This document shows positions 2,548-22,658 of a stretch of 24,115 bases of DNA, piece by piece (within the stretch, counting starts at the first letter, position 1; every line of letters begins with the position of its first letter). Source of the DNA: Candidatus Altiarchaeota archaeon (GTDB taxonomy: Archaea > Altiarchaeota > Altiarchaeia > IMC4 > SCGC-AAA252-I15); assembly GCA_043800705.1 (NCBI GenBank), contig JAZDMS010000039.1:1-24115 (forward strand). The letters run 5' to 3'. The translations under genes and the position numbers were made by a program. The notes below the pieces were generated by a model. It worked only from the letters and a program-made list of their open reading frames with translations. It did no database searches and had not been told where the DNA came from.

Positions 2548-4071
2548 ATGGAACAGTTTACATATGACAGGCAGGTGAAGCCGAAGACCGTGCCGAAGAG
2601 GATAAGCATATTCGACACGACGCTGAGGGACGGGGAGCAGACCCCGGGCGTCAACTACAGCATAGACGACAAGAGGCGGATAGCGGAGGCCCTGAGCAGG
2701 ATGGGCGTCAAGTACGTCGAGGCCGGTTTTCCGGTATCCAGCGACGGGGCGTTCCAGGCCGTGAAGGAGGTCGCCGGGATGGGACTGAAGTGCGAGGTCG
2801 TCGGACTGGCCAGGTGCATGGAGAAGGACATCGACGCGGCGGCCGATGCGGGAGTGGACATGGTCCACATCTTCATCGGGACTTCCCCTATGCATAGGGA
2901 GTATAAGCTGGAGATGACGAAGGCCCAGGTGCTGAGGAAGGCGCAGGAGAGCATCCAGTATGCGAAGGACCGCGGGTGCAGGGTGCATTTCAGCCCCGAG
3001 GATGCGTGCAGGACCGAGATCGAATTCCTGAAGGAGGTCTGCGCGATGGCGGATGGCATGGGCGTGGAGCACATCAACATCCCCGACACCGTCGGAGTCA
3101 TGACCCCGCAGGCCATCGCCTGGCTGATCGCCGAGCTGAGGAAAGGCGTGAATATACCTTTCGCGGTGCACTGCCACAACGACTTCGGGCAGGCGACCGC
3201 CAACACCATCAGCGCCATTACGGCGGGAGCCACGATTCCGCATGTGACGGTGAACGGCACAGGCGAGAGGGCTGGGAACACGTCCCTTGAGCAGGTCGTG
3301 ATGGGATGCAAGCTGATATACGGGATAGAGACCGGGATAAGGACGGAGAGTATCTGGGAGACATCGAGGCTGGTGGAGAGGCTGTCAGGGATAAAGGTTA
3401 TGCCGAACTTCCCGATCGTCGGAGGAAACGCATTCGCCCACGAGAGCGGCATCCACGTCCACGCCATCCTGAAGAAGGCCGCGACCTACGAGGCTATCAG
3501 GCCCGAGATGGTCGGCACTGAGAGGAAGATAGTGATAGGGAAGCTGATCGGCTCCGCAGGCGTGAAGGACAGGCTGAAGGCGATGGGAGTGAAGGTCTCG
3601 GACGAGCAGGCCCGCGAGATCACCGCGAAGGTGAAGGACCTCGGCGACAAGGGCAAGAAGGTGATGGAGGAGGACCTTCAGGCGATAGCGGAAGACATGG
3701 TCGGGAAGGGCTCGAGGAAGGAGAGATTCGTCGAGCTGAAGGATATGACCCTCCACGCCGAATACGGCGACAAGCCGACGGCGTCGGTCGCCCTGATAGT
3801 GAAAGGCAAGGAGAAATACGCAAGGGAGCATGGAGTCGGCCCGGTCGACGCGACCCTGAACGCCATAAGGGCCGCAGTCGGCGACAAGGACATACAACTG
3901 GACGAGTTCCACCTGGATGCGATCACCGGAGGCTCCAATGCCCTTGCAGACGTCAGCATCCGAGTCAGCAAGAATGGCAGGAGCGTGATGGCCAGAGGAG
4001 TACATGAGGATGTCGTAATGGCCTCGGTGATAGCCTTCATCAACGGAGTCAACCGGATAATGCGCAAATAG
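2548..4071 (+). CDS. leuA: 2-isopropylmalate synthase / citramalate synthase family (LeuA/CimA) with C-terminal regulatory domain
   Basis: Motifs DTTLRDGEQTPG, EAGFP, HCHNDFG, NGTGERAGN, AHESGIH and GVGPVDA. LeuA versus CimA cannot be settled by eye. Confidence 0.9.
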   Translation: MEQFTYDRQVKPKTVPKRISIFDTTLRDGEQTPGVNYSIDDKRRIAEALSRMGVKYVEAGFPVSSDGAFQAVKEVAGMGLKCEVVGLARCMEKDIDAAADAGVDMVHIFIGTSPMHREYKLEMTKAQVLRKAQESIQYAKDRGCRVHFSPEDACRTEIEFLKEVCAMADGMGVEHINIPDTVGVMTPQAIAWLIAELRKGVNIPFAVHCHNDFGQATANTISAITAGATIPHVTVNGTGERAGNTSLEQVVMGCKLIYGIETGIRTESIWETSRLVERLSGIKVMPNFPIVGGNAFAHESGIHVHAILKKAATYEAIRPEMVGTERKIVIGKLIGSAGVKDRLKAMGVKVSDEQAREITAKVKDLGDKGKKVMEEDLQAIAEDMVGKGSRKERFVELKDMTLHAEYGDKPTASVALIVKGKEKYAREHGVGPVDATLNAIRAAVGDKDIQLDEFHLDAITGGSNALADVSIRVSKNGRSVMARGVHEDVVMASVIAFINGVNRIMRK

Positions 4072-4202
4072 AGGCATAAGTATAATCCGGCAGAGGAGCC
4101 GACAGGCTCCTCCTTCGCCAGCCTTAGTAAGGCTGGTACATGAGGATGTCGTAATGGCCTCGGTGATAGCCTTCATCAACGGAGTCAACCGGATAATGCG
4201 CA
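4000..4202 (+). repeat. Exact 67-bp direct repeat of the leuA 3' region (4000-4066 = 4136-4202) flanking a two-hairpin insert
   Basis: gtacatgaggatgtc...ggataatgcgca occurs twice. Hairpins at 4093-4112 and 4118-4136. Confidence 0.97.
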
Positions 4203-4245
4203 TCATCGACGGAGTCAACAGGATAACAGGATAATGCGGAAGTGA
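4203..4245 (+). pseudogene. Diverged relic of the last 11 codons of leuA, with an internal 8-bp duplication
   Basis: Aligns to 4037-4071 with mostly synonymous changes; caggataa is doubled at 4219-4234. Confidence 0.8.
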
Positions 4246-4270
4246 GGGGCGGTTTTATTTTTCCCGCCCC
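4246..4270 (+). terminator. Stem-loop with T-rich loop followed by a long T-rich tract; probable leuA terminator
   Basis: ggggcgg-ttttattttt-c-ccgcccc, then T runs to about 4370. Confidence 0.55.
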
Positions 4271-4375
4271 CGTCATTTTCCGGGGCGGTTTATGTTTTTT
4301 GTGATTTTTAGGTTTTGCCGGCGGTTTTTCCCGTTTTTTTCGTTTTTATTTTCGGTTTCGTATCTATTTTCTAGC

Positions 4376-5854
4376 ATGAAATCGAAGGTTTCGGGTTTGC
4401 TGGTTTTTTTGTTTTTGGCGTCTTCTGTCTCGGCCTGGAGCGACGCAGTCGACAGGCAGCTATGCAATGACGTGGCCACTATCGTCTGGGGCCCTTCGGT
4501 GGCGAACAGCTGCCTAGGCTCCTTCGACACAGGCGCCCAGGAGGGCGTCTGTTCCCTGTACGGGGACAGGAAATCCGACTGCGAATCCTTGGCTGTCGAC
4601 TCTCCAGCCGTCATCCCAAACCAGCTCGGGGAGGGGCAGCTCGAGCAGGCAGGAGACTGCCCGATAACCAGGACGCCCGAGAACGGCTACCTCTGCGCGA
4701 AAAAGACCGATGCGATCGAGGCCGCCAGGGAATGGACCGCCGCGGCCGGGACTGCGGCCAACCAGTGCGAGAGGATCGGCAGGTTCTGTGTCGCAGCCAA
4801 TTACATGGCTCAGGCATATGACCCGTTCTCGTCGGTCATCAACTTCGACAGGACCTGCCAGGACGTCTCCAACCGCAGGATCGACTTTGGGGTCGTCAAC
4901 AACCAGACAAACTGGGGCACCAACGTTGTCTGCAACTTCGACTATTTCATCGGCCTCGCAGGGGGGCAGATAGCGAAGAACTACAGCCAGAACGTCCAGG
5001 TCACAAGCAGGATGATCAACACGATAAAGAGCAATTTGACGGCCGAGGCGCGCCTATTGAAGAACAAGCCGTACCCGAGGCAGCCGACCACAACCACTAC
5101 GCTTCCCGGCCAGAATGCCAGCGCGGACCCGACGCTGTATTGCATGACCGACGAGGACTGCATGGTCACGCAGTCAGGGTGCTGCGACTGCAACCAGGGA
5201 GGCTCCAATGCAGCGATTGGCGTTAAGTTCAATGCAGAGTGGGTTAAGACCCTCGAGCAAAGGTGTAGGAACATCTCATGCATACAGGCGATATCCAACG
5301 ACGTCTCATGCAAGTCGACGGCGGTCTGCGAAGGCCACGTCTGCTCCTTGAAGGCCGTCGTGCCCACGACGACAACGACCGCGACAACAACTTCATCGAC
5401 GACAACGACGTCGTCCACGACGTCCACCACCGTGACGACGACCACGCTTCCTGCGGCGACCACGACGACGCTGAAGGAGGGGACGTCCGCAATGAGTCTC
5501 GCACTATATGCGATCGTTTTCCTTGTTGTCGTTGCCGGGGCGTATTTCCTGGCTGCGCCGCTGATAAAAGGATCCGATGACGGCTCAGACGACAGGGAAT
5601 CAAGGGGCGGACTGAGGGGTTTCGGAGGCAGGGACGGCAAGATAGAATCCTACGGGGCCTCGAGGCTCGGCGACGCCGACAGGTCCGCGAAGCCGAAACA
5701 TATGATCCCGATGAAGGATAGGAAGGAGAAGCCGAAGGAACAATATAACGAGCCCCAGAGAAGGGAGGAATCCGAGAAGCCCGCAGGCAAGGGCAGGGTG
5801 AGGAGCCTCTTCCATGAGCCGAAGGGGGACGACACCACCCTCGGAAAGAGATAA
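4376..5854 (+). CDS. Membrane-anchored cell-surface protein (492 aa): Cys-rich helical N-domain, 8-Cys module, Thr-rich stalk, TM, charged cytoplasmic tail
   Basis: ATG 4376 begins signal peptide MKSKVSGLLVFLFLASSVSA. Contains CMTDEDC..GCCDC..C..C..C..C, TTTT runs and TM LALYAIVFLVVVAGAYFLA. Confidence 0.85.
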   Translation: MKSKVSGLLVFLFLASSVSAWSDAVDRQLCNDVATIVWGPSVANSCLGSFDTGAQEGVCSLYGDRKSDCESLAVDSPAVIPNQLGEGQLEQAGDCPITRTPENGYLCAKKTDAIEAAREWTAAAGTAANQCERIGRFCVAANYMAQAYDPFSSVINFDRTCQDVSNRRIDFGVVNNQTNWGTNVVCNFDYFIGLAGGQIAKNYSQNVQVTSRMINTIKSNLTAEARLLKNKPYPRQPTTTTTLPGQNASADPTLYCMTDEDCMVTQSGCCDCNQGGSNAAIGVKFNAEWVKTLEQRCRNISCIQAISNDVSCKSTAVCEGHVCSLKAVVPTTTTTATTTSSTTTTSSTTSTTVTTTTLPAATTTTLKEGTSAMSLALYAIVFLVVVAGAYFLAAPLIKGSDDGSDDRESRGGLRGFGGRDGKIESYGASRLGDADRSAKPKHMIPMKDRKEKPKEQYNEPQRREESEKPAGKGRVRSLFHEPKGDDTTLGKR

Positions 5855-5860
5855 AATCAC

Positions 5861-5885
5861 CAAAATCGCGTTACGCGCGATTTTG
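5861..5885. terminator. 10-bp-stem hairpin between convergent genes
   Basis: caaaatcgcg-ttacg-cgcgattttg. Confidence 0.55.
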
Positions 5886-5942
5886 ACATTATATTTCGAA
5901 CAGATTTCGGCCGCGGCTAAAGGCCACAGTACAAAATAATTC

Positions 5943-6536
5943 TTAGGCCTTGCCTCTCGACTGGCCTGTGACTATTCCCCTGGCTATGAGGTGGGCGACC
6001 CTGAGGGGCTCAGGCACCTTGCTTCTGGTCGCGGACAGTCGGACTATGGAGGATGCGTCGTCGAATCCTATCCCCGCAGCCTGTATGTGTATCCTTTTTC
6101 CCCCCCTGACCTCGACTGCTGCCGGTTCCCCCGCCGCCTTTATCAGCGTCCACCTCCTCTGCCATTCCGCTGTGTGCTTTAGCGCCGCCTTTATGGCTTC
6201 GAAGTCCGGCATATCCCGCGTGACGGCGATCACGGGGATCCCCGTCTCCTCGAAGAGGTCGCCGATGTCCAGGACGTTGAAGCCTCCGAAAGCGATTCCG
6301 TCGACCATGACGACGCGGACGTCCCTGAACCTGCGGGCTTTGACGAGGGACGTCAGCTTTTCCGTGGAGTCTAGGCCGTCGACGGCGACCTTCGTCGACA
6401 TGACCCCGTCCATCCATCTGCCGCCGCGGAAGACGCATCCGACGACGAGGGTCTCCCTGTCGCCGCGGCGGAACGGCCCGTCGTCGAAGCCGAGTATCCT
6501 GACCTCGTCCTTTATGGAGTAGAAGCTGACGGCCAC
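5943..6536 (-). CDS. DUF99 family protein (endonuclease V-like fold)
   Basis: RILGFDDGPF, VDGLDST, VMVDGIAFGGFNVLD, PEPLRVAHLIARG; GTG start. Confidence 0.9.
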   Translation of the reverse strand: MAVSFYSIKDEVRILGFDDGPFRRGDRETLVVGCVFRGGRWMDGVMSTKVAVDGLDSTEKLTSLVKARRFRDVRVVMVDGIAFGGFNVLDIGDLFEETGIPVIAVTRDMPDFEAIKAALKHTAEWQRRWTLIKAAGEPAAVEVRGGKRIHIQAAGIGFDDASSIVRLSATRSKVPEPLRVAHLIARGIVTGQSRGKA

Positions 6537-6611
6537 ATTTTTAGGATAGGCGTATGGGATTAAATGCGGATATTCGGGGGGCGTTTTATCCGTTGACTGC
6601 CAGTCTTATAC

Positions 6612-7202
6612 ATGATATCAGAGGCACGCGCCCTAAGGGTGTTGGCGAGGCTCGATTCTCCCTGGAGGATCCAGGAGTACCTTAACAGTCTCCCGTACGA
6701 CCACGTCGACGGATGCGTTTCCCCGCTCAACGTCGTGAGGGAGGGGAAGGCCCAATGCCTCGAAGGCGCCCTACTGGCGGCAGCATGCCTCATGATGGCG
6801 GGCAGGAGGCCATTGATCGTGGACCTGAGGGCCTACAGGGACGACGACCACGTCATAGCAGTCTTCAGGGAAGGCGGCCTCTGGGGTGCGGTGTCCAAGT
6901 CCAGCTTCATCACGCTGGAGTACCGGGAGCCGGCCTACAGGAGCATTAGGGAGCTTGCGATGAGCTACTTCGATTTCTACATCGACGGGAGGGCCAGGAT
7001 ATCCCTCAGGGAGTATTCTAGGCCGATGGATTTGAGGAGGTTCGGCGACGGCTGGGTCAGCTCCGAAAAGGACCTCGAATACATCGGCGGGCTCCTGGAC
7101 GAGACCGCCCACTATCGGCTCGTGAAGAAGGGCGCGAAGCTGAAGAAGAAGGACGGCGCCCTCCTGGAAAGGACTTGGACCGCGAGGCCGGCGAAGGATT
7201 AG
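6612..7202 (+). CDS. Transglutaminase-like / papain-fold putative cysteine enzyme
   Basis: IQEYLNSLPYD, SPLNVVREGKAQCLEGALLAAA (Cys), DDDHVIAVF (His), WGAVSKS. Confidence 0.75.
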   Translation: MISEARALRVLARLDSPWRIQEYLNSLPYDHVDGCVSPLNVVREGKAQCLEGALLAAACLMMAGRRPLIVDLRAYRDDDHVIAVFREGGLWGAVSKSSFITLEYREPAYRSIRELAMSYFDFYIDGRARISLREYSRPMDLRRFGDGWVSSEKDLEYIGGLLDETAHYRLVKKGAKLKKKDGALLERTWTARPAKD

Positions 7203-7260
7203 TCGTGGAATTCCATCGTCTCGTCTGATTAGTCGTGGAATTCCATCGTCTCGTCTGATT
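7197..7260. repeat. Perfect 30-bp tandem duplication covering the MFS gene 3' end at a convergent-gene junction
   Basis: gattagtcgtggaattccatcgtctcgtct x2, followed by gatt. Confidence 0.97.
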
Positions 7261-8383
7261 CCCAGGCTTCGGGCTTGACGCCCTTGTACAGGCGCTTGTA
7301 TTCGACTATGAGGGGGTAGGCCAGAAGGAGCAGGCCTGCGGGTATGAACGCGTACTGGATGTTCGAAAACAGCAGGTGGCATGCGAGGATGGCGGCTACG
7401 CCGAATGCGCGGCCCGTGTTCAGGATTATCTCCCGCAGGTACATGGCGTCTTCGGTGGATCTCACCTTGTCGAGGACTAGGGAGGTCGTGAAGGGGTTGG
7501 CGACCGCGACGAAGAAGCCGACGACTGCCCTGACTATGAACCAGTTCACGGGGTCGGAGGCGTAAGCTGAAAGGATCGTGGCCGCCGCGGTCATCACGAT
7601 CGAGGGGTAGAGGTAGTCGACCCTGTTTCCGCTGACGTCTGAGAGGCGGCAGAAGTAGAGGGTCGCCGCCGCCCCGGCGACGGCTATTATCGAGAAGAAG
7701 CCGCCGTAGGACACGGCGGACGTGATGTATACCAGGGTGATTATGGGGACGCAGACCCAGTCGACTCCGTGGAAGAATCCCTGGATGAACACGAGCGACC
7801 GTATCCCCTTCCCCGCGGACCAGGCCCTTCTGAGGCCGATGTCTATCCGTTCGCTTGCCTGCCTGCCGTAGTGGATGCCGGGGAGTACGAGGACCGCGGC
7901 GCCGGCGAAAAAGAGGGGGGTGAAGCCGTATCGTTCGGCTATGAGCCCGCCAAGGAGGGGTGCGAATATGCCGAGCGCTGGGGAGATGAGGAATATGAGG
8001 CCCGCCAGGTATGCGCTCTTTGCGCCTTTGCGTATCCTGAAGTAGAGTATGTTGTACGGCACCCAGTAGAGGGGGGACGTGAGGCCGTCGAACACGCCGA
8101 GGAGTATGAGCTGGGCGGAGTTTTCTAGGTAGGGGACGGCCATCATCTCCAGCGCGAACGCGAAGAAGCCGGCCGCCATGTAGCGCATTGTGAAGAAGCG
8201 GCGGACGATGAGGACGATCAAGGCTGCTGAAACCCAGCTTGCGAGCCTGAAGAGGAGTATGTCCTGGACGCTGAAGCCCTCCTTTATGAAGTAGAAGTAG
8301 ATGAACCCCCATGCGAATATGGCGGGGAACATGTACAGTATCTGGTTCAGGTAGATGCTGATGAATCCGCGGCCCCGGTACAT
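7229..8383 (-). CDS. MFS transporter (384 aa)
   Basis: About 12 hydrophobic segments; APLLGGLIAERYGF and CRLSDVSGNR loop motifs. True start is probably ATG 8383, since the track extension overlaps herA. Confidence 0.85.
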   Translation of the reverse strand: MYRGRGFISIYLNQILYMFPAIFAWGFIYFYFIKEGFSVQDILLFRLASWVSAALIVLIVRRFFTMRYMAAGFFAFALEMMAVPYLENSAQLILLGVFDGLTSPLYWVPYNILYFRIRKGAKSAYLAGLIFLISPALGIFAPLLGGLIAERYGFTPLFFAGAAVLVLPGIHYGRQASERIDIGLRRAWSAGKGIRSLVFIQGFFHGVDWVCVPIITLVYITSAVSYGGFFSIIAVAGAAATLYFCRLSDVSGNRVDYLYPSIVMTAAATILSAYASDPVNWFIVRAVVGFFVAVANPFTTSLVLDKVRSTEDAMYLREIILNTGRAFGVAAILACHLLFSNIQYAFIPAGLLLLAYPLIVEYKRLYKGVKPEAWESDETMEFHD

Positions 8384-8455
8384 GTATAGTCCATAAGGAG
8401 GTCCGGTTTTTAACCGCCGTCGGATTTTAACCGGGGAAACCATATTCTTTCCTTG

Positions 8456-9868
8456 ATGGATTCCGCAGGCTTGGTGGTCGGATCGGTTGGCTCGAGGGTC
8501 GAGGTCCAGGTGTTGGGCGACCAGGTCGAGCTCGGCAGCGTCCTCAACATCGGAGGGCACTTCGGGATCGTCGCGCAGATGCGCTACGACGAGGACGATA
8601 GGATCGGCGCCCGCCAGAGGCTGATAGCCACGGTACAGATATTCGGCAGGCTCGAAGGCGGCCGCCTGCACAAGGTGAAGAGGCCGGTGAAGCCGAATGA
8701 GAGGGCGAAGTTCGCCACGGATTCGGAGCTTGAAGGGATCCTTTCCCAAGAGGAGAAGATCAGCGTCGGCAGCGTCCTTGGGACCGGCGCAAGGGCTTAC
8801 CTCAACGCGGGAGAGTACGACAGGCACACCGCCATACTGGCATCGACTGGGGCGGGCAAGAGCTACACCGCCGCGAACCTCGTCAAGGAATACGCCGCGC
8901 TCGGCCTGCCCGTGGTCATAGTCGACACCCACGGCGAATACGCTGGCCTTCTGTCAAAGCTCGCGGAGGGGGGCTCGTTCGCTGTGAAGACGCTCACCGT
9001 CAAATACGAGCGCAAAGGCTATGAGAAGGTGCTGATACCCCTTTGCGACCTGGAGGCCAGGGACTTCCACCATTTCACCGGCTTGTCCGAGCCGCAGGAG
9101 TCCGCGCTTGGGATGATAATCGAGAAGCTCTCCGGCTCCGAGTACACCCTCGACGACATGATAGGGGAGGCGGGCAAGCTCGACATCAGCGTCATACACG
9201 AGGCGACGCAGCAGGCGCTCACACGGAAGCTGATGAAGCTCAAGAGCGTCGCAAAGGGAGTGTTCGACAGGTACGGGACCGACATCAACGCCCTCGTGGA
9301 GCCGTATCAGGTGACGATAATCGACGCCTCCATGGCTGCGGAGGGCATACGGAGGTCGGTGATATCGTACCTCAGCAAGGAGCTTCTGCAGGGGCGGATC
9401 AACAAGGTCAACGACCTCGGGGAGAAGAAGCTCGAATACCCGCTCCTGTTCGTAATAGAGGAGGCCCACAACTACGCGGGTTCGAGCCTGACCCACAGCT
9501 GCAAGAGCCAGCTGCAGCGGATCGCGTCCGAGGGCAGGAAGTTCGGCATCGGATTGGTAGTCATATCCCAGAAGCCGTCGAAGATCGACGAGGAGATTCT
9601 TTCCCAGTGCAACAGCGGCCTGTACATGCACATCACCAACCCAAGGGACAAGGACCACATCAAAAAGAGCTTCGAGAGCATCTCTGAGGAGATAATCGCG
9701 GGCCTGGACACCCTCGACGTGGGGGAGTGCATAATCGCGGGGGCCATACTTGACATACCGTTCCTCCTGTGCAAGGTCGACAGGATCGAGATGAAGAGGG
9801 AGAAGACCAGCAAGTTCGGGTTCAAAAGGAGGGAAAAACCCCGGACCGGCGGATTCGGCTACGTCTGA
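8456..9868 (+). CDS. herA: HerA/FtsK-family ATPase with N-terminal HAS-barrel-like domain
   Basis: Walker A ASTGAGKS, IVDTHGEY, Walker B FVIEEAH, RIASEGRKFGIGLVVISQKPS, ILSQCNS. Confidence 0.85.
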   Translation: MDSAGLVVGSVGSRVEVQVLGDQVELGSVLNIGGHFGIVAQMRYDEDDRIGARQRLIATVQIFGRLEGGRLHKVKRPVKPNERAKFATDSELEGILSQEEKISVGSVLGTGARAYLNAGEYDRHTAILASTGAGKSYTAANLVKEYAALGLPVVIVDTHGEYAGLLSKLAEGGSFAVKTLTVKYERKGYEKVLIPLCDLEARDFHHFTGLSEPQESALGMIIEKLSGSEYTLDDMIGEAGKLDISVIHEATQQALTRKLMKLKSVAKGVFDRYGTDINALVEPYQVTIIDASMAAEGIRRSVISYLSKELLQGRINKVNDLGEKKLEYPLLFVIEEAHNYAGSSLTHSCKSQLQRIASEGRKFGIGLVVISQKPSKIDEEILSQCNSGLYMHITNPRDKDHIKKSFESISEEIIAGLDTLDVGECIIAGAILDIPFLLCKVDRIEMKREKTSKFGFKRREKPRTGGFGYV

Positions 9869-9875
9869 GAGCCGG

Positions 9876-10700
9876 TCAGTATCTCATCACCCAGTAGCGG
9901 CCTTGGTGGAATTCCCTTTCTTTGGGGTTCTCCGAGGGCACGATGAATGAGGCCTTCTCCAGGGCGTAGCCCGCTTTCCTATATGGCGCTTCGTAGTGCA
10001 ATGCCACCACGTCGTCGGATATGAGGCCCATTGCGTATGCGGAGTCCGCCCGCACCTGGTCCGGCCCCATGGCGACCGAGGACCTGAATCCCGCAGCCTT
10101 CGCGAGGAGGTCGATTTTCCGGGTAGAATGCAGCTGCCAGTCGCCGAACCTTTTTTTTAGGATGTTCGGCAGCTTCCAATAGCCGGCGGAGGTCTGCGGA
10201 TACAGCTTCAGAAGCGAAGGCTCGTCCTCGAATATGCACGGCATCAGCTCGATCTTCCCTATGGCGCCCTTTTCGACTGCGATCTCCTGATCCCCCCTGA
10301 GCTCGTCAAGGGGGGAGAATGCTCCGCCGGAATATAACTGCCGAATCTGCTCGTCGCCGCGGAGAACGCCGCCCGCATCTTTTCGCTCGTCTGGGTGGGG
10401 GAAGACGCTTATCGAATGCAGGCTGCCGCCGAAGCTCCGGCCTATGAGGGGCAGGTCGATCGTCCTGAGGCGGAGTTTGGCTTCGACCTCCCCGGCTCCC
10501 CTGCGCCAGCCGAATTCGAGGCCGTCAGCGTTCCTTTCGACCTCCTGCAGCATCCTCGAAAGGGCGGCATATGAGGTAGGGTATGCCAGCGTCGATGGAA
10601 CGCCCTGCCAGGATTCGCCGACACGGGGTGTTTTGAGGGAGGCCACCGGTAGATATGGGATTCGCCGGGATTTATACGGTTTCGCTGCGGAAACATTCAT
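9876..10700 (-). CDS. Hypothetical protein (274 aa)
   Basis: Long ORF filling the gap between herA and pheS; no recognised motif. Confidence 0.65.
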   Translation of the reverse strand: MNVSAAKPYKSRRIPYLPVASLKTPRVGESWQGVPSTLAYPTSYAALSRMLQEVERNADGLEFGWRRGAGEVEAKLRLRTIDLPLIGRSFGGSLHSISVFPHPDERKDAGGVLRGDEQIRQLYSGGAFSPLDELRGDQEIAVEKGAIGKIELMPCIFEDEPSLLKLYPQTSAGYWKLPNILKKRFGDWQLHSTRKIDLLAKAAGFRSSVAMGPDQVRADSAYAMGLISDDVVALHYEAPYRKAGYALEKASFIVPSENPKEREFHQGRYWVMRY

Positions 10701-10726
10701 ATACCCCGACGAGACTATATGTAAGG

Positions 10727-12199
10727 ATGGACCTCCACCCGCATGAAATCAAGGTATTGAAGGCCTTGAAGAAGGCCTCAAGCCCGAAGGAGCTATCCGC
10801 AGCCTGCGGCCTGCCCCTTGACGCGGTATTGAGGGCCGGCTCATGGCTTAAGACGAAGGGCCTCATAGCAGTGGACGAGAAGGAGGGGGAGGAGGTTACG
10901 CTCACCAAGGAGGGCGCCGTCTATGCCGAGGACGGTTTGCCTGAGAGGCAGCTCATCAACCGCATCAGGAAGGACGGAATCAGGCTCGAGGAGCTGAAGG
11001 CCAATGCCGATGCTAGCGTCTTCGGCATCGGCTTCGGGTGGCTTCGGAGGAAGGGTCAGGTCGAGGTCAAGGACGGCTTCGTGAAGGTCTTGAGCCTCGG
11101 AAAGTCCGCCGACGAGGAGGTCTTGGAGCTCCTGAAGGGGGGGCCTGTGCTGGCTGAGTCCCTGACGAAGGAGTTGTCCGCGGGTTTGGGCCTGTTGAAG
11201 TCCCGAAAGAGCGTCGTCGCATCGAAGGAGACGAAGGATATCATGTTCAAGCCCACTGAAGAGGGTTCGAGGCTAGCGCCGGGTCTCAAGGAGGATGACA
11301 GCATCTCGCAGCTTACGCCGGAACTCATCGTCTCGGGTGCGTGGAAGGGCCGGAGGTTCAGGGCCTACGACACGAAGGTCTATGTGAGACCCGATTCGCC
11401 TGTGAAGAGGCACCCGCTTCGGAGGCAGATCAACAAGGTCAGGAGGATATTCACGGGGATGGGGTTTCAGGAGATCAGGGGGCCGCTCGTGGAGAGCGCC
11501 TTCTGGAATTTCGACGCCCTCTTCCAGCCGCAGGACCACCCGGCTAGGGACATGCACGACACCTTCTACCTGAAGAATCCGGACAAGATCGACATCGAAG
11601 GCTACGGCAGGTTCAAGGACAAAATCAAGGCATCCCACGAGGACGGCGGAGGCAGCGGCTCCACGGGGTGGGGATACGGCTGGAGCGAGGAGGTTTCGAA
11701 GAAGACCCTCCTTAGGACCCATACGACGGCGGTGAGCGCGCGGTTCCTCGGCAAGGTGAGGAGGGAGGATCTGCCCGTGAAGGTTTTCAGCATCGGGAAG
11801 GTCTTCCGCAACGAGGCCGTCGACTACAAGCACCTGCCCGAATTCTACCAGGTGGAGGGGATCGTGGTCGCACCGAGCGTGAATTTCACGAATCTCCTCG
11901 GCATACTGAGGCAGTTCTACAACGAGATGGGATTCGACAAGGTAAGGTTCAGGCCCGGTTACTTCCCGTACACGGAGATGAGCGTCGAACCGGAGGTTTA
12001 CATGGAGTCCAAGAACGCGTGGATAGAGCTCGGCGGCGCGGGAATATTCAGGCCGGAGGTCGTGAAGCCGCTATTAGGATTCGACTGCCCGGTCCTCGCG
12101 TGGGGCCTCGGCCTAGACAGGATAGTCACCTTGAGCCTCGGCATGCAGGACATCAGGGACCTGTACATGAGCGACGTGGAGTGGCTTAAGGCGAATTGA
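10727..12199 (+). CDS. pheS: Phenylalanine--tRNA ligase alpha subunit (archaeal long form)
   Basis: FWNFDALFQPQDHPARDMHDTFY, LLRTHTTAVS, FRNEAVDYKHLPEFYQVEG, FRPGYFPYTEMSVE, GAGIFRPEV, AWGLGLDR; ATG 10727. Confidence 0.98.
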   Translation: MDLHPHEIKVLKALKKASSPKELSAACGLPLDAVLRAGSWLKTKGLIAVDEKEGEEVTLTKEGAVYAEDGLPERQLINRIRKDGIRLEELKANADASVFGIGFGWLRRKGQVEVKDGFVKVLSLGKSADEEVLELLKGGPVLAESLTKELSAGLGLLKSRKSVVASKETKDIMFKPTEEGSRLAPGLKEDDSISQLTPELIVSGAWKGRRFRAYDTKVYVRPDSPVKRHPLRRQINKVRRIFTGMGFQEIRGPLVESAFWNFDALFQPQDHPARDMHDTFYLKNPDKIDIEGYGRFKDKIKASHEDGGGSGSTGWGYGWSEEVSKKTLLRTHTTAVSARFLGKVRREDLPVKVFSIGKVFRNEAVDYKHLPEFYQVEGIVVAPSVNFTNLLGILRQFYNEMGFDKVRFRPGYFPYTEMSVEPEVYMESKNAWIELGGAGIFRPEVVKPLLGFDCPVLAWGLGLDRIVTLSLGMQDIRDLYMSDVEWLKAN

Positions 12200-12361
12200 C
12201 TGTCTTTGGCAAATCAGCCTTCATTCTTCGATTGGCCCAATGCATGCGGGGTCGAAGACCCCGCATTCGTTCCGGGGGATCAGGGGTAACTTAGACCTGA
12301 GGGGGCGGTAGCCCCCGCGGGTCAGTACATGAGCGACGTGGAGTGGCTTAAGGCGAATTGA
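12163..12361 (+). repeat. Exact 37-bp direct repeat of the pheS 3' end (12163-12199 = 12325-12361) flanking a 125-bp hairpin-rich insert
   Basis: gtacatgagcgacgtggagtggcttaaggcgaattga occurs twice. Hairpins at 12244-12266 and 12294-12323. Confidence 0.97.
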
Positions 12362-13310
12362 TCCTTACGACCTGCGATTGCTCCGGCTTCTTCCTGGATC
12401 TCTGGACTATCAGGGCAAGCACTGCCAGTCCGAGGAGTATCACGGCGCCGATTATGATCGGGGTCATCGACGTATTCACCTGGACCTGGGCGGTTGCCGG
12501 CTTGTATCCGTATAGGTCTGCCGTTATGTTCCATATCCCGGTCTCGTCTGACTGCAGGTTCAGGACTCCGGAATCCTCGGTCTTGAAGACTATGGTTTTT
12601 CCGCTCGGTTTGGTCGCGCGTATGAGGGACGCCATGCCTTTGTTGTCCGATTTCACCTGTACCGAGATCACTTCCCCGGTTGTCACTTCCTTTGGCGCGG
12701 CCAATGCGAGTGTTCCCTTGCCCGGGCATGAGGTGCAGACTCCTCCGCAGTCGACCCCTATCTCCCTGTCGTCCAATACGCCGTTGAAGCAGTGGCACTG
12801 CAGGCACTGGCCTGCGCAGTCCACGCTTTCCTCACCCCCGTCCGTTAACCCGTTTTCGCATGTTTTGGGGGCTACCTTGAATGTGCTGGCGTTCGATGCC
12901 TTGGCGTCCCCGCTGTCCTGGCCGGTTATGACGCACGCCCATTCCCCGGGCTGCGCCTGCGGCCCCAGCACGAAGCCGGCCACTATCTCGCCTTTTATCA
13001 CCGAGGTCTGTTCGGCTGCGAGGAAGTCCTGCTCCTGGCGCTGGATGTATCCGCCGCTTGATGGCATCCCTATGAACGCCTGGACTGTCTTTATGTCCTT
13101 GTAGCTGTTGAGGTCCTCAAGCGATCCGGTGCACCATACAATGTCGGTCTGGCCGGATTTGACGACCGAAGAGGCTGCCACGTCGTATGCCTTCGGGAGG
13201 CTGTTGACTATCTGGACCTTTATCTCGGTCATCTGAGACGAGGCGGGCAGAAGGAGCGTGAGCAGGATGATGGTGGCAAAAAATGAAAGGGAGAGTGTGC
13301 GTTTGTCCAT
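12348..13310 (-). CDS. Cell-surface protein (320 aa) with beta-rich domains, two CxNGxxDxxExxVDCxGxCxxC repeats and a C-terminal TM
   Basis: RBS GGTGA, ATG 13310, signal peptide; CENGLTDGGEESVDCAGQCLQC and CFNGVLDDREIGVDCGGVCTSC; TM IIIGAVILLGLAVLALIV. Confidence 0.85.
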   Translation of the reverse strand: MDKRTLSLSFFATIILLTLLLPASSQMTEIKVQIVNSLPKAYDVAASSVVKSGQTDIVWCTGSLEDLNSYKDIKTVQAFIGMPSSGGYIQRQEQDFLAAEQTSVIKGEIVAGFVLGPQAQPGEWACVITGQDSGDAKASNASTFKVAPKTCENGLTDGGEESVDCAGQCLQCHCFNGVLDDREIGVDCGGVCTSCPGKGTLALAAPKEVTTGEVISVQVKSDNKGMASLIRATKPSGKTIVFKTEDSGVLNLQSDETGIWNITADLYGYKPATAQVQVNTSMTPIIIGAVILLGLAVLALIVQRSRKKPEQSQVVRINSP

Positions 13311-13369
13311 CCTGTCACCAGTGGGTTGGTTTAGTATTCGTTTTGGGAAATATAAGGCTGCTGTGGGGT

Positions 13370-14224
13370 TCATAGGAGCGCGGGGGTCACGTAGACCTCC
13401 GTCAGCGCGGCGATGACGAGGATTATCAGCGACAGCAGTATCAGGTCTACGGAGTCCGCGACTATGTGCCAGAATTCCTTTGACCGGTAGTGGTGGCATA
13501 CTACGGCCACGGATATTATGCCGCCTGCCAGCGATCCGAGGAAATAACCCGCCACCTCGGGCACCCCGTGGACGAGGTAGACCAGACCGAGGGGGATGAC
13601 GTTGAAGTAGTGGATGAGTGTGGGGTTGTGGCCGTACTCGCCGAGCGCATTGAAGCCCTCCCGTATCACGTTGCCTATCGCAACCCCTATAACCGACGCG
13701 TTCCAGCAGAGTATGAAGATCGCCCCCGCCCCGTATATGAGGGAGAATATTATGCAGAACGACAGTACCCTGAGGTTGTTGGCGAGGATAGCCTGTACGT
13801 TGCCCATGTTCGAGACCGTTGCGCCGGTGGGGGTGAACTGGCTCTGGATGGACCTGATGGTCTCGATCTGGCTGGAGCAGACCTTGTCGCTGATGCTCGT
13901 GGGCAGGATCGTATACCAGAACGCGTATGCTAGGACCATTCCGACGAAGAGGTAGAGGAAGAACCATAGTATGTGGAGGTGTTCCTTTATGAGGACGTAT
14001 TCCCTGCACTCCTTCAGGTCCTTGGCCTCCTCGCAGATGAGGGCGCGGTACATTATGACGACGAGTGGTATTGTGGTCAGGAATATCCCGGATATGCTGG
14101 CATATTTCCCGAACGCCCAGAGCGCGAGGAAGATGCCGACGGTGGCGTATGTGAAGCCGATGATGAGCATCCTCTTGGGATGCTTCTCCCAGCTTTCAGG
14201 GACGACGATCGCCTCAAGGACCAC
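13370..14224 (-). CDS. Stage II sporulation protein M (SpoIIM/DUF95) family membrane protein
   Basis: ILANNLRV, GAIFILCWNASVIG, HGVPEVAGYFLGSLAGG, IAALTEVYVTP. Confidence 0.85.
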   Translation of the reverse strand: MVLEAIVVPESWEKHPKRMLIIGFTYATVGIFLALWAFGKYASISGIFLTTIPLVVIMYRALICEEAKDLKECREYVLIKEHLHILWFFLYLFVGMVLAYAFWYTILPTSISDKVCSSQIETIRSIQSQFTPTGATVSNMGNVQAILANNLRVLSFCIIFSLIYGAGAIFILCWNASVIGVAIGNVIREGFNALGEYGHNPTLIHYFNVIPLGLVYLVHGVPEVAGYFLGSLAGGIISVAVVCHHYRSKEFWHIVADSVDLILLSLIILVIAALTEVYVTPALL

Positions 14225-18254: not shown

Positions 18255-18408
18255 TTTCCATCAACTCCGATCGATTATCTTGATTTCCTAAATTATACGT
18301 TTTTTGGCGTAATAATAACATCGTGGTTATTTTATGCTGGGTTGCCTGCTGATTCGACCCGGCCAAGTAAAGTGCCAGCCCGGCTGTTTTCATGTAGGAT
18401 ATGATAGG

Positions 18409-18457
18409 TGAAACAAGGGATAACCTTTGATGAAACACCCGTAACATAAAGTGAAAC
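18409..18457 (-). promoter_or_regulatory. Operator cassette copy 1 (upstream of the COG1361-ABC operon)
   Basis: TGAAAC 18409, TGAAAC 18431, GTAACA 18441, TGAAAC 18452 (plus-strand spelling). Confidence 0.8.
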
Positions 18458-18468
18458 CGCATATGGTT

Positions 18469-18584
18469 GGGCTTCCACCCGCGAGGCGATGTTGTGTTTG
18501 CGGATGGAAGCCCTTTGGTGGTTGAGCGTACACCCTATTTGTGTTTGCGGATGGAAGCCCTTTGGTGGTTGAGCGTTCACCCTA
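18469..18584. repeat. 14-bp-stem hairpin (18469-18513) and overlapping 46-bp tandem duplication (18492-18537 / 18539-18584, one mismatch)
   Basis: gggcttccacccgc...gcggatggaagccc; ttgtgtttgcggatggaagccctttggtggttgagcgt(a/t)cacccta x2. Confidence 0.92.
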
Positions 18585-18586
18585 GC

Positions 18587-19072
18587 TTACCATCTTCCAA
18601 TCCCCTTGAATCCCCCATGCTGTGGGCCTTTGCCTGCGCATCCTTTGTGGGTTGTCCAGTTTCCTTCGGTTCTCATGTTCTGCATCGCGCCCCTGACATC
18701 GTCGTCTGATGCGTCGACGGCAAGCCCCAGGCGCGTCCTTAATTGTTTGCCCTGCTCTGCCTGCATGGACTGACCCTTCGCTTTTACAGCCAGCCGGTAT
18801 TCCCTTAAGGTTGAATCCTCTGTGAGTCCAAGGTCTTTCAGATGCCTTTGCCAAAGCGCTTCCTGCACCTCTTCCCGGGTGGCGTTGTCAGGAAGGCCCA
18901 TGTCCTCAAGGAACGATAAGTTCCCGAAGACGGCCTGTCTGCCGAATCCCCCCTTCATCCATGGTTTGCCCATGAGTCTCTGCCCGCCTTCGTATGCTGC
19001 CGCCGCTGCGACGAACACCCCAAACACCACCAGGGCGGCTGCCCCGGCGATGAATAATCTTTTCTTTTCCAT
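18587..19072 (-). CDS. Small secreted helical protein (161 aa) with three (L/M)GL-xxx-(A/S) repeats; Spy/CpxP/ZraP-like architecture
   Basis: RBS GAGGTGA, ATG 19072, signal peptide; MGLPDNATREEV / LGLTEDSTLREY / LGLAVDASDDDV; Gly/Met-rich termini. Confidence 0.75.
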   Translation of the reverse strand: MEKKRLFIAGAAALVVFGVFVAAAAAYEGGQRLMGKPWMKGGFGRQAVFGNLSFLEDMGLPDNATREEVQEALWQRHLKDLGLTEDSTLREYRLAVKAKGQSMQAEQGKQLRTRLGLAVDASDDDVRGAMQNMRTEGNWTTHKGCAGKGPQHGGFKGIGRW

Positions 19073-19103
19073 TTGTCGATTCACCTCTGAAGGAGTTAAA
19101 TGA

Positions 19104-19152
19104 TGAAACAGGAGTAAAGCTATTATGAAATCGCCGTGACAGAAAATGAAAC
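19104..19152 (-). promoter_or_regulatory. Operator cassette copy 2
   Basis: TGAAAC 19104, TGAAAT 19126, GTGACA 19136, TGAAAC 19147. Confidence 0.8.
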
Positions 19153-19162
19153 CAGGGCATAT

Positions 19163-19573
19163 TCATATTTTCAGCCTGATGAGGTTTGTGTTTCCGAGTG
19201 GCCTCTTGTCTACTACCCCCCTCTGCTCGAGTTTCATTATGAGACGCGATACTTTGACCTTTGACAGGCCGCTTTCGGCGACCAGGTGCATCTGGTCCAT
19301 CCGCTTCTCCTTGAGTAGGAGCTCTATCAGCTTCCTCTCGTCCGGGGGGAGGACTTTGAGCATGTTGTAGGCGTGCTGGTGGCTTATCCTCCACTGGAAG
19401 AGGAGGATTATCATGGCCCCCACCATCATCGCGACGGCGGCCACGCCGTAGGTCAGAAGAGGCATCTGCATCCCCGTGTCCTCTATGAAGTATCCGTTAA
19501 GGATTGAGAGCATCAGCCCTAGAAGGAAAACCAGGGTTATAGCGACTGCCAGCCGAGTCTCCGAAACTTCCAT
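19163..19573 (-). CDS. Membrane-anchored winged-helix transcription regulator (2 TM + wHTH; COG2512-like)
   Basis: Two N-terminal TM helices, then LPPDERKLIELL..MDQMHLVAESGLSKVKVSRLIMKLEQRGVVDKRPLGNTNLIRL. Confidence 0.88.
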   Translation of the reverse strand: MEVSETRLAVAITLVFLLGLMLSILNGYFIEDTGMQMPLLTYGVAAVAMMVGAMIILLFQWRISHQHAYNMLKVLPPDERKLIELLLKEKRMDQMHLVAESGLSKVKVSRLIMKLEQRGVVDKRPLGNTNLIRLKI

Positions 19574-19574
19574 C

Positions 19575-19862
19575 TTAGTCAGCCAGGTCTTCCCTCATCT
19601 GCAGGAACGTCTTCCGATCTATCTCACCCGACGCGTATCTGCGCTTGAGCAGGTTCAAAGGCGTCTCAAAAGCGGTGTGCGCCTTCTTTTGGGAGCCTTT
19701 AAGAAGCCACCAGAATATCAGCGCAACCAGGGTCACAGTCAGCAGATTCCAAATCAGCGGCATGGGTATGACTCCGAATAAGGGGTCATAGTATCCAGAA
19801 AAATGCCTTACAGTCTCATCGCGGCCTATGCGTTGCCCGATTTCCACTGCGCTTGTATCCAT
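19575..19862 (-). CDS. SHOCT-domain membrane protein (95 aa)
   Basis: RBS GAGGTG, ATG 19862, one TM, C-terminal PLNLLKRRYASGEIDRKTFLQMREDL. Confidence 0.88.
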   Translation of the reverse strand: MDTSAVEIGQRIGRDETVRHFSGYYDPLFGVIPMPLIWNLLTVTLVALIFWWLLKGSQKKAHTAFETPLNLLKRRYASGEIDRKTFLQMREDLAD

Positions 19863-19900
19863 ATTACACACCTCATTATGCTTCTATGCCAATAAAAGGA

Positions 19901-19949
19901 TGAAACAGGACATATCCTTGGGTGAAACAGGCGTAACAGAAAGTGAAAC
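19901..19949 (-). promoter_or_regulatory. Operator cassette copy 3 (upstream of the SHOCT-regulator operon)
   Basis: TGAAAC 19901, TGAAAC 19923, GTAACA 19933, TGAAAC 19944. Confidence 0.8.
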
Positions 19950-22557: not shown

Positions 22558-22585
22558 TTGAACCTCCAATAACATTTGAATTCTG

Positions 22586-22631
22586 TATAAATAAGTCAAC
22601 GGTCAAAATAGATTGGCCGGGGAAACCCCGG
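22586..22631. promoter_or_regulatory. TATA-like box (TATAAATA 22586-22593) and GC hairpin (ccggggaaaccccgg 22617-22631) in a divergent intergenic region
   Basis: Seen directly; direction not determined. Confidence 0.45.
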
Positions 22632-22658
22632 ACAGGACGCGATTGGATGAGGTTGGCA

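Follow-up and report, generated by a model that had tools for sequence, protein, structure and literature searches.

The window, that is, the whole 24,115-nucleotide stretch analysed here, belongs to a MAG of Altiarchaeota (43 contigs, 87.6% complete) and contains two protein-coding genes whose ends are present in duplicate around a short insert. The first gene, an ORF at 2548-4071 on the plus strand, encodes an intact LeuA-type 2-isopropylmalate/citramalate synthase of 507 aa (domain matches: HMGL-like, 1e-88; LeuA_dimer, 1e-34). Within its end lies a 67-nt segment (4000-4066) that is repeated on the same strand with 100% identity at 4136-4202; both copies open with GTACATGAG, preceded by a in one case and g in the other. 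The insert between them, cassette 1 (4067-4135), is read on the minus strand according to its fold and family alignment, and its start, AATAG (4067-4071), completes the leuA ORF, the last 72 nt of which are copy 1 plus AATAG. Copy 2 is a displaced fragment that abuts a hairpin of the cassette and is followed, with no hairpin between, by a third partial copy (4203-4245, plus strand). This older, degenerate copy, which is absent from the description in an earlier note on this DNA, matches 4037-4060 at 22 of the 24 positions from 4203 to 4226, after which come an 8-nt internal duplication and then TGA. Because the AATAG of copy 1 is not derivable from the context of copy 2, which continues into the older partial copy, site 1 appears to combine two alleles. 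The second gene, pheS, is an intact ORF of 514 aa at 10655-12199 on the plus strand (tRNA-synt_2d, 5e-88). Its last 37 nt (12163-12199), which end exactly with the stop codon TGA, recur with 100% identity as a displaced fragment at 12325-12361 on the same strand, again with GTACATGAG at the start of both copies and with different preceding bases (t and a). Cassette 2 (12200-12324, minus strand) separates the two. Within the displaced copy lie the final 14 nt, stop codon included, of a convergent ORF (12348-14009, minus strand) that encodes 553 aa with a membrane helix and a basic tail, ending in INSP and the stop. This ORF and the original pheS end share 14 nt, an overlap that also exists in two related genomes, G003 and G006, where the pheS site has neither cassette nor duplication and represents the recipient-type arrangement. 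No exact match to the 37-nt pheS repeat was found in the metagenome collection.

Both cassettes are strongly structured. In cassette 1 (69 nt), the outer hairpin H2 (4119-4135), the linker GCGAAGG and the inner hairpin H1 (4093-4112) follow one another on the minus strand, the DNA fold has z = -4.2, and the last base of one hairpin directly precedes the second GTAC. Cassette 2 (125 nt) folds into hairpins at 12244-12266 and 12294-12323 with z = -4.0, and one hairpin stops one base short of the second GTAC; for neither cassette was any of 200 shuffles equally stable. In neither fold do the two ends of the cassette pair with each other, and no terminal inverted repeats were seen. The exact duplications, the intact host genes and the pair of strong hairpins in each insert, one of them near GTAC, agree with what the earlier note had described. 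The inserts, which it had called dissimilar in sequence, are not of an unknown kind: both fall into repeat families associated with tRNA genes. It is well supported that the two inserts are members of families of small, structured, non-coding repeats, distributed across the order Altiarchaeales and tied to tRNA genes. Cassette 1 belongs to module A, which on the minus strand consists of an outer hairpin (N-AGCCTT..AAGGCT-N′), a linker GCGAA(A/G)G and an inner hairpin whose loop is conserved. This motif is present in 13 of the 49 genomes of the order that were compared, and a reversed-pattern control gave none. An alignment of 32 copies, cassette 1 included, revealed that the outer helix is paired in all 32, with compensatory changes at its two closing pairs, and that the inner helix has 2-5 pair types per position. 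ARAGORN, run with introns allowed, placed module A as the intron of tRNA-Asp(GTC) in two genomes, L099 and L110, and as a tRNA intron in L094; cassette 1 aligns with all three, which makes it a homolog of archaeal tRNA introns. In related genomes, module A also immediately adjoins tRNA-Ala, -Met or -Gly at the 3′ end.

The homology to introns is that of cassette 1, and the family of cassette 2, module B, is found after tRNA-Thr. The part of cassette 2 at 12267-12324 has relatives at five loci of its own genome (C34, C14, C39, C42 and C24) and in other genomes of the order, and module B directly follows tRNA-Thr(GGU) on contig C39 as well as in L121 and L122. On C39, three module B units stand in tandem, each preceded by the same 14-nt tRNA-Thr 3′ end. 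A second family, of T-rich hairpins, includes the tRNA-Ala(TGC) intron of the same genome, to which the cassettes at three loci are similar, namely C18 (92% over 53 nt), C25 and C26. The unique parts of both window cassettes have no further copy in the genome. The window itself contains no tRNA gene; both of its copies follow protein-coding genes, so that neither interrupts a tRNA gene. In minimum-energy folds, four pre-tRNA anticodon arms showed the outer hairpin plus bulged helices and no clean 3-4-3 motif of the bulge-helix-bulge type expected at exon-intron boundaries.

The architecture of the two sites is a recurrent one. A hairpin cassette likewise separates a gene end from its displaced copy at no fewer than 12 further loci of the genome and at several in relatives, and 14 of the 16 short-range repeat pairs examined in the genome flank such a cassette. 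For both cassettes of the window, a position between the functional gene end and its displaced duplicate is well supported. Of 30 module A copies, 15 are flanked by a direct repeat that exceeds the 95th percentile of controls from mismatched loci; the downstream repeat copy usually starts 0-3 nt past the hairpin, and the joint is always at the same nucleotide of the element. Across events, the flanking repeats measure 14-155 nt and the inserts 33-190 nt. Together with the cassette-free pheS sites in relatives, the multi-copy elements and the preservation of the genes by duplication uphold the claim that these are insertion scars. Could they be artefacts of assembly, for instance variants from several strains joined one after another? 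That the genome is a MAG in 43 contigs is the ground for asking. Such an artefact is very improbable: an ordinary read is longer than either repeat (37 and 67 nt), the cassettes belong to genuine multi-copy families that show covariation, and related genomes recorded separately, as well as metagenome contigs, have the same architecture.

The edges of the repeats are informative. The edge away from the hairpin joint coincides with a stop codon at the pheS of the window, at the leuA of G001, G004 and L027, and at C34 and C26; with the ATG of an ABCE1-like gene in G001, where the 50-nt repeat is 100% identical; and with tRNA position 1 or the tRNA 3′ end at L098, L095, L090 and C39. Where the two copies have diverged, differences fall at third codon positions in 12 of 16 cases at C13, 8 of 12 at C19, 5 of 5 at C37 and 7 of 12 at C25, with 0-2 amino-acid changes each; by reading of the alignment, all 10 differences in the first 21 codons at C19 are synonymous. 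The preponderance of third-position differences and the scarcity of amino-acid changes imply that the displaced copies were once working genes. At C19, C13 and C34, the copies are identical beside the junction point in the gene (J) and diverge toward the gene end. C18 has the reverse polarity, being diverged beside J and identical further on, an observation that runs counter to the import of gene ends proposed below. Junctions of tRNA fragments lie in the D-arm or anticodon region, junction positions at one gene vary between species, and tandem partial copies without an element occur at 4136-4245 of the window and at the pheS of G017.

As both repeats of the window begin with the same nine letters, GTACATGAG had been taken for the fixed cut of a sequence-specific system with a variable second cut. 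The coincidence is improbable by chance, at 4^-9 = 3.8e-6 for one pair of junctions or about 1e-3 over all pairs of approximately 25 junctions. A tally of the 186 short-range exact repeats of the genome found the 9-mer at the start of two, namely those of the window; the genome has 25 copies of it (about 15 expected), and the other 21 are without such a repeat. Among the 49 genomes of the order, pairs of GTACATGAG within 300 bp are confined to the two window sites and one unrelated protein-internal repeat. Events at the same leuA end in relatives are independent, and their boundaries differ from GTACATGAG. The 9-mer therefore does not mark such boundaries in general. Among 23 other junctions, 5 show a weaker preference, TGT(N2-3) before the junction, for which the background is 2.4% (P ~2e-4, for a motif chosen post hoc). 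As for the supposed variable cut, its position is mostly the end of a gene product (stop codon, ATG or tRNA end).

Transposition with long, variable target-site duplication would account for a part of these features. An enzyme acting in trans would nick the target at a specific sequence, before GTACATGAG, and attach to it a non-autonomous element by its hairpin end; the other strand would be nicked 37-155 nt away, gap filling would generate the duplication, and selection would retain only those insertions whose duplication restores the gene. We consider this unlikely. In its favour, the two window repeats and the 50-nt repeat of G001 are 100% identical, the element end at the joint is precise, the 9-mer is common to both sites and joined by the post hoc TGT preference, the duplication at pheS must coincide with the insertion owing to the 14-nt gene overlap, and the element-free tandem partial copies could be excision footprints. 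The genome also contains two DDE and two IS110-type transposase genes. A random second nick, however, would not predict edges at stop codons, ATG and tRNA ends in most events; nor does such a mechanism predict the synonymous-only divergence between copies or the AATAG at site 1. Further points against it are that GTACATGAG occurs at no other event and that the cassette ends do not pair with each other in the folds, as terminal inverted repeats would. Members of the IS1634 group make target duplications of tens to hundreds of bp, which recalls the repeats of 14-155 nt here. Those are kilobase-sized insertion sequences with inverted-repeat ends and a large DDE transposase. The ends of the present cassettes are unpaired in the folds, and the two DDE_Tnp_1 genes, located elsewhere in the genome, lie in open frames of 313 and 401 aa.

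Profile searches of the 87.6%-complete genome revealed no element-encoded enzyme. Matches numbered zero for Y1/HUH transposase (PF01797, for which control genomes matched), TnpB (PF07282), Cas1 (PF01867) and reverse transcriptase (PF00078), so that none of these candidate enzymes has a match in the genome, which counts against transposition. IS200/IS605 and REP/RAYT elements insert beside a short target without target duplication; the cassettes share the subterminal hairpins of such elements, yet Y1 and TnpB gave no match and the inserts are flanked by repeats of 37 and 67 nt, so this class was rejected. A casposon or ectopic Cas1 integration and a TPRT-like retroelement were likewise rejected for want of a Cas1-family integrase and a reverse transcriptase, respectively, in the genome. 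An integrase-type element carries a recombinase gene in it or beside it, and the inserts are just 69 and 125 nt. No free-standing endonuclease gene was found, as LAGLIDADG occurs solely inside a 1127-aa frame and GIY-YIG solely in a 538-aa frame. There remain one tyrosine recombinase (the single Phage_integrase match, on C17) and the two IS110-type genes, all elsewhere in the genome. These are the enzymes that might move miniature integrative elements, non-autonomous derivatives of plasmids or viruses whose flanking repeats would be attL and attR. Archaeal integrative elements classically leave behind a reconstituted gene and a direct repeat of the gene terminus (PMC3293823), and the tandem array on C39 would also suit them. 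This origin is nonetheless improbable, because an att-type element must carry its target sequence, and here members of the same small families flank many unrelated targets (leuA, pheS, the ABCE1-like gene and several tRNAs), at junctions that differ between species at the same gene, with repeats of 14 to 155 nt and no recombinase gene next to any cassette examined.

The reading that we prefer, and hold tentatively, is that a gene end and its adjoining element may have been imported together through a single homologous crossover and a single non-homologous joint, the latter at the hairpin end. The donor DNA would come from a related chromosome, strain or species and bring the gene end with the neighbouring element; a homologous crossover would occur inside the gene, and the far hairpin end of the element would be joined non-homologously to J, a position that lies further upstream in the resident gene. 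The resident gene end would thereby be pushed aside rather than replaced. Each event would then have one true junction, that of hairpin end and J (here GTACATGAG), and the other repeat edge would mark where the likeness of donor and recipient stops, i.e., the gene end. Since the edge lies mostly at the end of a gene product, a limit of homology fits better than a second nick, and copies that are identical next to J and diverged toward the gene end exhibit the mosaic polarity that such an import predicts. A pheS cassette cannot fit between overlapping convergent genes without duplication, which implies that the donor had another gene order. It counts against this reading that neither window site yielded a donor allele, in which the gene end would be followed by the cassette and not duplicated, and that no donor with a suitable gene order was seen for pheS, although G001 and G016 differ downstream of the gene. 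The joint at the hairpin end might be made either by an element-specific enzyme or by breakage of the hairpin; the fixed joint nucleotide of module A, a further point against this reading, looks like enzyme or structure specificity, unlike ordinary illegitimate recombination. In homology-facilitated illegitimate recombination of naturally transformable bacteria, a homologous anchor and a non-homologous joint integrate foreign DNA and can leave duplications. In the present events, by contrast, a specific hairpin element invariably provides with its end the site of the non-homologous joint, and the process is not known from archaea of this group. The 100%-identical repeats may alternatively be target duplications made on the spot. 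The identity of the 9-mer at the two joints is a separate observation that an import leaves unexplained.

The correspondence with gene-product ends also invites an origin through RNA, one that would draw on circular RNAs and on ligases that form them. The terminal piece of a transcript with the element would reach from the outer hairpin, where its end would be processed or protected by the hairpin, to an mRNA or tRNA cleavage site at J. An archaeal RNA ligase would circularise it, creating the junction of hairpin and J, the circle would be copied to DNA, and a single homologous crossover would yield the order of repeat, element and repeat. The conserved element end lies within approximately 2 nt of tRNA-intron 5′ splice sites and mature tRNA 3′ ends, the repeat edges match gene-product ends including tRNA position 1 and the tRNA 3′ end, and the tRNA-fragment junctions fall in the D-arm or anticodon region. 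We regard this route as doubtful, considering that no reverse transcriptase was found in the genome, that the element at site 1 is antisense to leuA with no minus-strand gene nearby, and that ORF ends are generally not mRNA ends.

Several described systems resemble the duplicated gene ends in part. In archaeal plasmid and virus integration, a reconstituted gene and a direct repeat of its 5′ or 3′ terminus flank the insert, as exemplified by SSV1 with a 44-bp repeat of the tRNA end (PMC3293823). Those elements are kilobases long, encode recombinases and target tRNA genes; ours are 33-190 nt, non-coding and intron-like, with leuA, pheS and the ABCE1-like gene among the targets. The tRNA-gene-disruption model of Sugahara et al. 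2012, as presented there, combines non-homologous (site-specific) and homologous recombination and links them to intron gain (PMC3293823). Ca. Altiarchaeum hamiconexum is reported to have the highest MITE density among archaea (146 per Mb; PMC11602168). Like MITEs and REP-like repeats, the cassettes are small, non-coding, multi-copy, hairpin-forming, taxon-specific and transposase-free; as MITEs are defined in that source (PMC11602168), however, the class does not apply, because no terminal inverted repeats pairing the two ends were seen and the flanking repeats measure 14-155 nt instead of 2-10 nt. The cassettes are also conserved at one end and less so at the other. Partial C-terminal duplications of cob and atp6 in fungal mitochondria show the same succession of working gene end, mobile DNA and displaced end copy, but they accompany free-standing ORFs for GIY-YIG or LAGLIDADG homing endonucleases (PMC6279837), of which none was found here. 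The "transposition" of tRNA introns in Thermoproteales (Fujishima et al. 2010, as cited in bioRxiv 10.64898/2026.10.13.758758 and PMC3293823) is comparable in that, in certain genes and genomes, genuine tRNA introns are formed by module A and by the T-rich hairpin family. It differs in the archaeal lineage and in that the present families also occur after tRNA 3′ ends and at duplication-flanked ends of protein genes; in the available portions of the tRNA-intron literature cited here, we found no description of such placement outside tRNA genes with gene-end duplications.

For the genomes themselves, those of Altiarchaeales hold displaced fragments of gene ends and, on the import reading, chimeric ends that come from other lineages. 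Both can mislead annotation, single-gene phylogeny and counts of "split" or duplicated markers. Within this one order, sequences of the intron families exist in three states, as introns, as elements abutting tRNA ends and as recent insertions at protein-gene ends with 100%-identical flanking repeats. A possible reading, put forward with caution, is that the cassettes are the same mobile units that become archaeal tRNA introns, and that the duplication-flanked copies at leuA, pheS, the ABCE1-like gene and tRNA ends are footprints of their fresh arrival. The defined element end, the future 5′ splice site, would join a break with the weak TGT(N2-3) preference, which resembles the tRNA-Asp anticodon loop, and the other side would be resolved by homologous recombination. 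The insert would persist as an intron where splicing is possible and would survive in protein genes only if a second copy of the gene end is kept. The route by which archaeal tRNA introns reach new sites is an open question (bioRxiv 10.64898/2026.10.13.758758), and the duplicated gene ends may provide a handle on how these introns move. Precise junctions and cassette-free relatives at the same site make the events datable and comparable for working out the mechanism. If this reading is true, the arrival of introns would be directly testable in Altiarchaeales populations.

At the 3′ end of the LeuA-type synthase ORF (2548-4071), the segment 4000-4066 recurs at 4136-4202 (67 nt, 100% identical), and at the end of the PheS ORF (10655-12199) the segment 12163-12199 recurs at 12325-12361 (37 nt, likewise 100% identical), as the earlier note had claimed. 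It was also correct that both repeats open with the same 9-mer, GTACATGAG, the bases just before it being different, and that the inserts of 69 nt (cassette 1, 4067-4135) and 125 nt (cassette 2, 12200-12324) each form two hairpins as single strands, the last of which stops at, or one base short of, the second GTAC. The single-strand folds gave z = -4.2 for the 69-nt insert and -4.0 for the 125-nt insert, with none of 200 shuffles being as stable. Each insert stands between a working gene end (copy 1) and a displaced copy of the same end (copy 2). RNA splicing was set aside as an explanation of these copies, because cassette 1 runs antisense to leuA and neither ORF needs splicing to be complete. 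DGR-like variable repeats were ruled out as well, since the repeat copies do not differ and the search for an RT gene was negative. At leuA, copy 1 is followed by AATAG, which completes the ORF, whereas copy 2 runs on into an older, degenerate partial copy of the gene end (4203-4245), identical at 22 of its first 24 nt and with no hairpin between it and copy 2; because of these different continuations, copies 1 and 2 derive from structurally different alleles.

Both inserts belong to multi-copy families in this genome (G000) and its relatives. The hairpin end of cassette 1, CCTCCTTCGCCAGCCTTAGTAAGGCTG, has further copies on contigs C35, C42, C23 (twice), C5 and C19 of G000, each abutting a truncated gene piece, and this end is a precise junction. 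The motif of this family, module A, was found in 13 of 49 genomes of the order Altiarchaeales (25 copies in G036, eight in G040, seven each in G000 and G003, and four in G001), and a reversed-pattern control gave none. Its outer helix is paired in all 32 aligned copies, the two closing pairs varying in a compensatory manner (C-G in 26, G-C in five and A-U in one copy; A-U in 25 and G-C in seven), while its inner helix shows two to five pair types per position and is paired in 26-30 of 30-32 copies. The reverse complement of module A is the intron of tRNA-Asp(GTC) in two genera (loci L099 and L110) and of a tRNA in locus L094, as predicted by ARAGORN with introns allowed; elsewhere, module A lies directly 3′ of tRNA-Ala, -Met or -Gly. 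The tRNA-Asp of G000 has a 22-nt intron made of a hairpin similar to module A. A second family, of T-rich hairpins, corresponds to the 89-nt intron of the G000 tRNA-Ala(TGC), which matches cassettes on C18 (92% over 53 nt), C25 (88% over 50 nt) and C26 (96% over 27 nt), all standing between duplicated gene ends; judged by eye, the tRNA-Arg and tRNA-Phe introns of relatives are like this family. ARAGORN, with introns allowed, called introns of 16-148 nt in 14 of the 32 detected tRNA genes of G000; a "tRNA-Stop(tta)" on C24 and a tRNA-Ala on C15, with a 118-nt intron resembling coding sequence, are doubtful calls that may be wrong.

Relatives of cassette 2, the module B family, occur on C34, C14, C24, C39 and C42 of G000, the C34 relative being, like cassette 2, enclosed by a gene end and the displaced copy of that end. 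At C39:7974-8647, three units stand in tandem after a tRNA-Thr(GGU) gene, itself with a 51-nt intron; the final 14 nt of this tRNA stand before every unit, like repeated integration at one att-like site. A unit on C42 abuts a 17-nt 3′ fragment of tRNA-Met, module B abuts the 3′ end of tRNA-Thr in G003 and G007, and of 11 module B loci of relatives, each retrieved as about 1.1 kb, eight include a tRNA gene. At C42:29798-30204, module B-like units of either orientation come after tRNA-Met, as does a 104-nt repeat (95% identical) that contains the last 17 nt of the tRNA. Searches against Rfam found no family at the gathering score in the window and only noise (E 0.8-9) for the two cassettes alone. 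Both window inserts fall into structured repeat families linked to tRNA genes, two families being tRNA introns. The window sites also resemble the footprint classically left by integrative elements, a reconstituted gene plus a direct repeat; miniature att-type elements, to which this footprint and the C39 array might point, are nevertheless a very improbable source of the duplications.

The earlier proposal of GTACATGAG as a general boundary motif did not survive a wider search. A whole-genome scan of G000 gave 186 exact repeats, 20 nt or longer and with copies no farther than 3 kb apart, and only the four window copies of the 9-mer bound any of them. The 9-mer occurs 25 times in G000, where a random 9-mer would be expected about 15 times, and no short-range repeat was present at any of the remaining 21 sites. 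Pairs within 300 bp in the 49 genomes comprised only the two window sites and one unrelated protein repeat, in G026, where the double 9-mer belongs to a tandem array within repetitive coding sequence. Junctions other than the window pair have different sequences. On the element strand, the window junctions read ..CTCATGTAC immediately before the element, and TGT followed by 2-3 nt and the junction was found at five of 23 other independent junctions against a background of 2.4%, with a binomial P of about 2e-4 that is to be taken as indicative because the motif was picked after seeing the data. The native tRNA-Asp site, CCCTGTCGC immediately before the intron, is of this TGT type. On these counts, GTACATGAG is not a target motif in general, and the full identity of the 9-mer at the two joints lies outside the explanation proposed below.

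Regarding the enzymes suggested earlier, no match to Y1 transposase, TnpB, RVT_1 or Cas1 was found in the 87.6%-complete G000, nor were free-standing homing endonucleases, LAGLIDADG being present only within a 1127-aa frame and GIY-YIG only within a 538-aa frame. Phage_integrase gave one match, a 283-aa frame on C17, and there are two DDE_Tnp_1 genes and two IS110-type transposase genes (C35:71750-73755, 334- and 348-aa frames), the latter adjacent and in opposite orientation. A HerA-like helicase ORF (8453-9868; DUF87/HerA central domain, 1.8e-25) lies between the leuA and pheS sites, and no link between it and the duplications was found.

The same architecture recurs across the genome. A BLAST self-comparison of G000 gave 80 pairs at most 600 bp apart, and a hairpin cassette of 33-132 nt lies between the copies in 14 of 16 pairs chosen from these by eye; most of the other 64 seem to be low-complexity arrays, repeats in tandem or internal to proteins, or more pairs of the same loci. 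The duplicated sequences are gene ends: protein genes contribute 3′ ends at C10, C13, C18, C26 and C34 and 5′ ends at C25 and probably C37, an ABCE1-like gene contributes its 5′ end at C19, and tRNA 5′ ends plus upstream sequence are duplicated at C5, C20 and C23. Of eight distinct leuA 3′ ends, four carry a cassette and a displaced copy (G000; G001, with the same sequence as L025; G004; and L027), with a different inner boundary in each of the four events, and the ABCE1-like gene has a 50-nt exact repeat in G001 versus a 155-nt repeat in G000. The duplications of relatives at the same genes represent independent events. Empty alleles, which the earlier note had called for, exist at pheS in G003 and G006, where a convergent downstream gene overlaps by 14 nt and there is no cassette; in G004, the convergent gene ends 10 nt past pheS. 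In G017 (locus L022, about 549-700), a diverged tandem copy of the pheS 3′ end (unit of ~62 nt, no hairpin between) may be the footprint of a lost element. A metagenome search for donor or empty alleles with the 37-nt pheS repeat as query gave no exact match. The evidence comes from a single genome, supplemented by partial data on relatives, with loci selected by eye, and the repeat scan of G001 covered 542,949 bases, about 30% of that genome. G000 is a 2.0-Mb assembly in 43 contigs, the window being one entire 24-kb contig; an assembly artefact is scarcely credible beside the recurrence in relatives.

Repeats of other kinds also occur in the window. Arrays of 7-nt units (GAAAACT / GAGAACT / GAAAACC) with a 21-nt super-period occupy the contig start (1-190), and similar arrays, internal or at contig ends, are found at C1 ~22250-23100, C12 ~76830-77000, C28 ~2360-2440 and C30 ~46700-46815, which may be a repeat common in intergenic DNA or one that breaks assemblies. 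At 7197-7256, 30 nt are perfectly duplicated in tandem (7197-7226 = 7227-7256), next to the start region of a minus-strand ORF (7229-8932) with a weak MFS match. Three dispersed repeats of ~55 nt, rich in GTGAAAC/ATGAAAC and 695 and 797 nt apart, plus a 47-nt tandem repeat (98% identical) lie at 18403-19949 and 18492-18584; the area of the tandem repeat has no long ORF and may be regulatory or origin-like.

The outer edge of the repeats usually coincides with the gene end. It falls within 0-1 nt of the end of the gene product at the stop codon of pheS in the window, of leuA in G001, G004 and L027, and at C34 and C26; at the ATG of the ABCE1-like gene of G001; at tRNA position 1 in L098 and L095; and at the tRNA 3′ end in L090 and C39. 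It lies 5-12 nt from that end at the window leuA site, C13, C10, C19 and C25, and runs further only at C18 and in some tRNA 5′ cases. An RNA-circle or cDNA route, by which the copied end would have passed through RNA, might account for edges at gene-product ends; set beside the lack of an RVT_1 match, it is decidedly unlikely. Where copies have diverged, the differences are mainly at third codon positions (12 of 16 at C13, eight of 12 at C19, five of five at C37 and seven of 12 at C25), with 0-2 amino-acid changes; C34, whose true frame, read by eye, carries a double stop, is outside these counts. On this pattern, the displaced pieces evolved within working genes rather than decaying in place, and the displaced copies were functional alleles. 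Transposition with a long variable target duplication, for which the precise hairpin-end junction and the transposase genes may be cited, would have to accommodate this divergence and is considered unlikely.

At C19, C13 and C34, the copies are identical beside the hairpin junction and differ nearer the gene end, the polarity expected of a crossover inside the gene that parts imported sequence from resident; at C18 the polarity is reversed. Each C19 copy differs from the G001 orthologue at eight of 50 positions (own reading), neither being marked as foreign. The reading favoured here, tentatively and at somewhat less than an even chance, is the import of a gene end together with its adjoining element: the donor segment would come from a related chromosome, a single homologous crossover within the gene would join it on one side and a single non-homologous joint, made at the hairpin end of the element, on the other, and the resident gene end would be displaced.

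A similar explanation, in which site-specific and homologous recombination combine, has been put forward for disrupted tRNA genes in Caldiarchaeum (PMC3293823), and C-terminal duplications beside mobile endonuclease ORFs in fungal mitochondria (PMC6279837) are alike to those described here. Ca. Altiarchaeum hamiconexum has the highest MITE density among archaea in a published census (PMC11602168), in whose MITE lists the module families may already be included; the word "intron" is absent from the comparative Altiarchaeales paper. In the literature searched, no description was found of duplicated gene ends enclosing tRNA-intron-family members at the ends of protein genes, or of the regularities noted here. 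Families of tRNA introns recurring among tRNA genes are known in Thermoproteales, as cited in a 2026 preprint (bioRxiv 10.64898/2026.10.13.758758), which calls the arrival of archaeal tRNA introns an open question. Recent, comparable events in Altiarchaeales bear on how these introns arrive.
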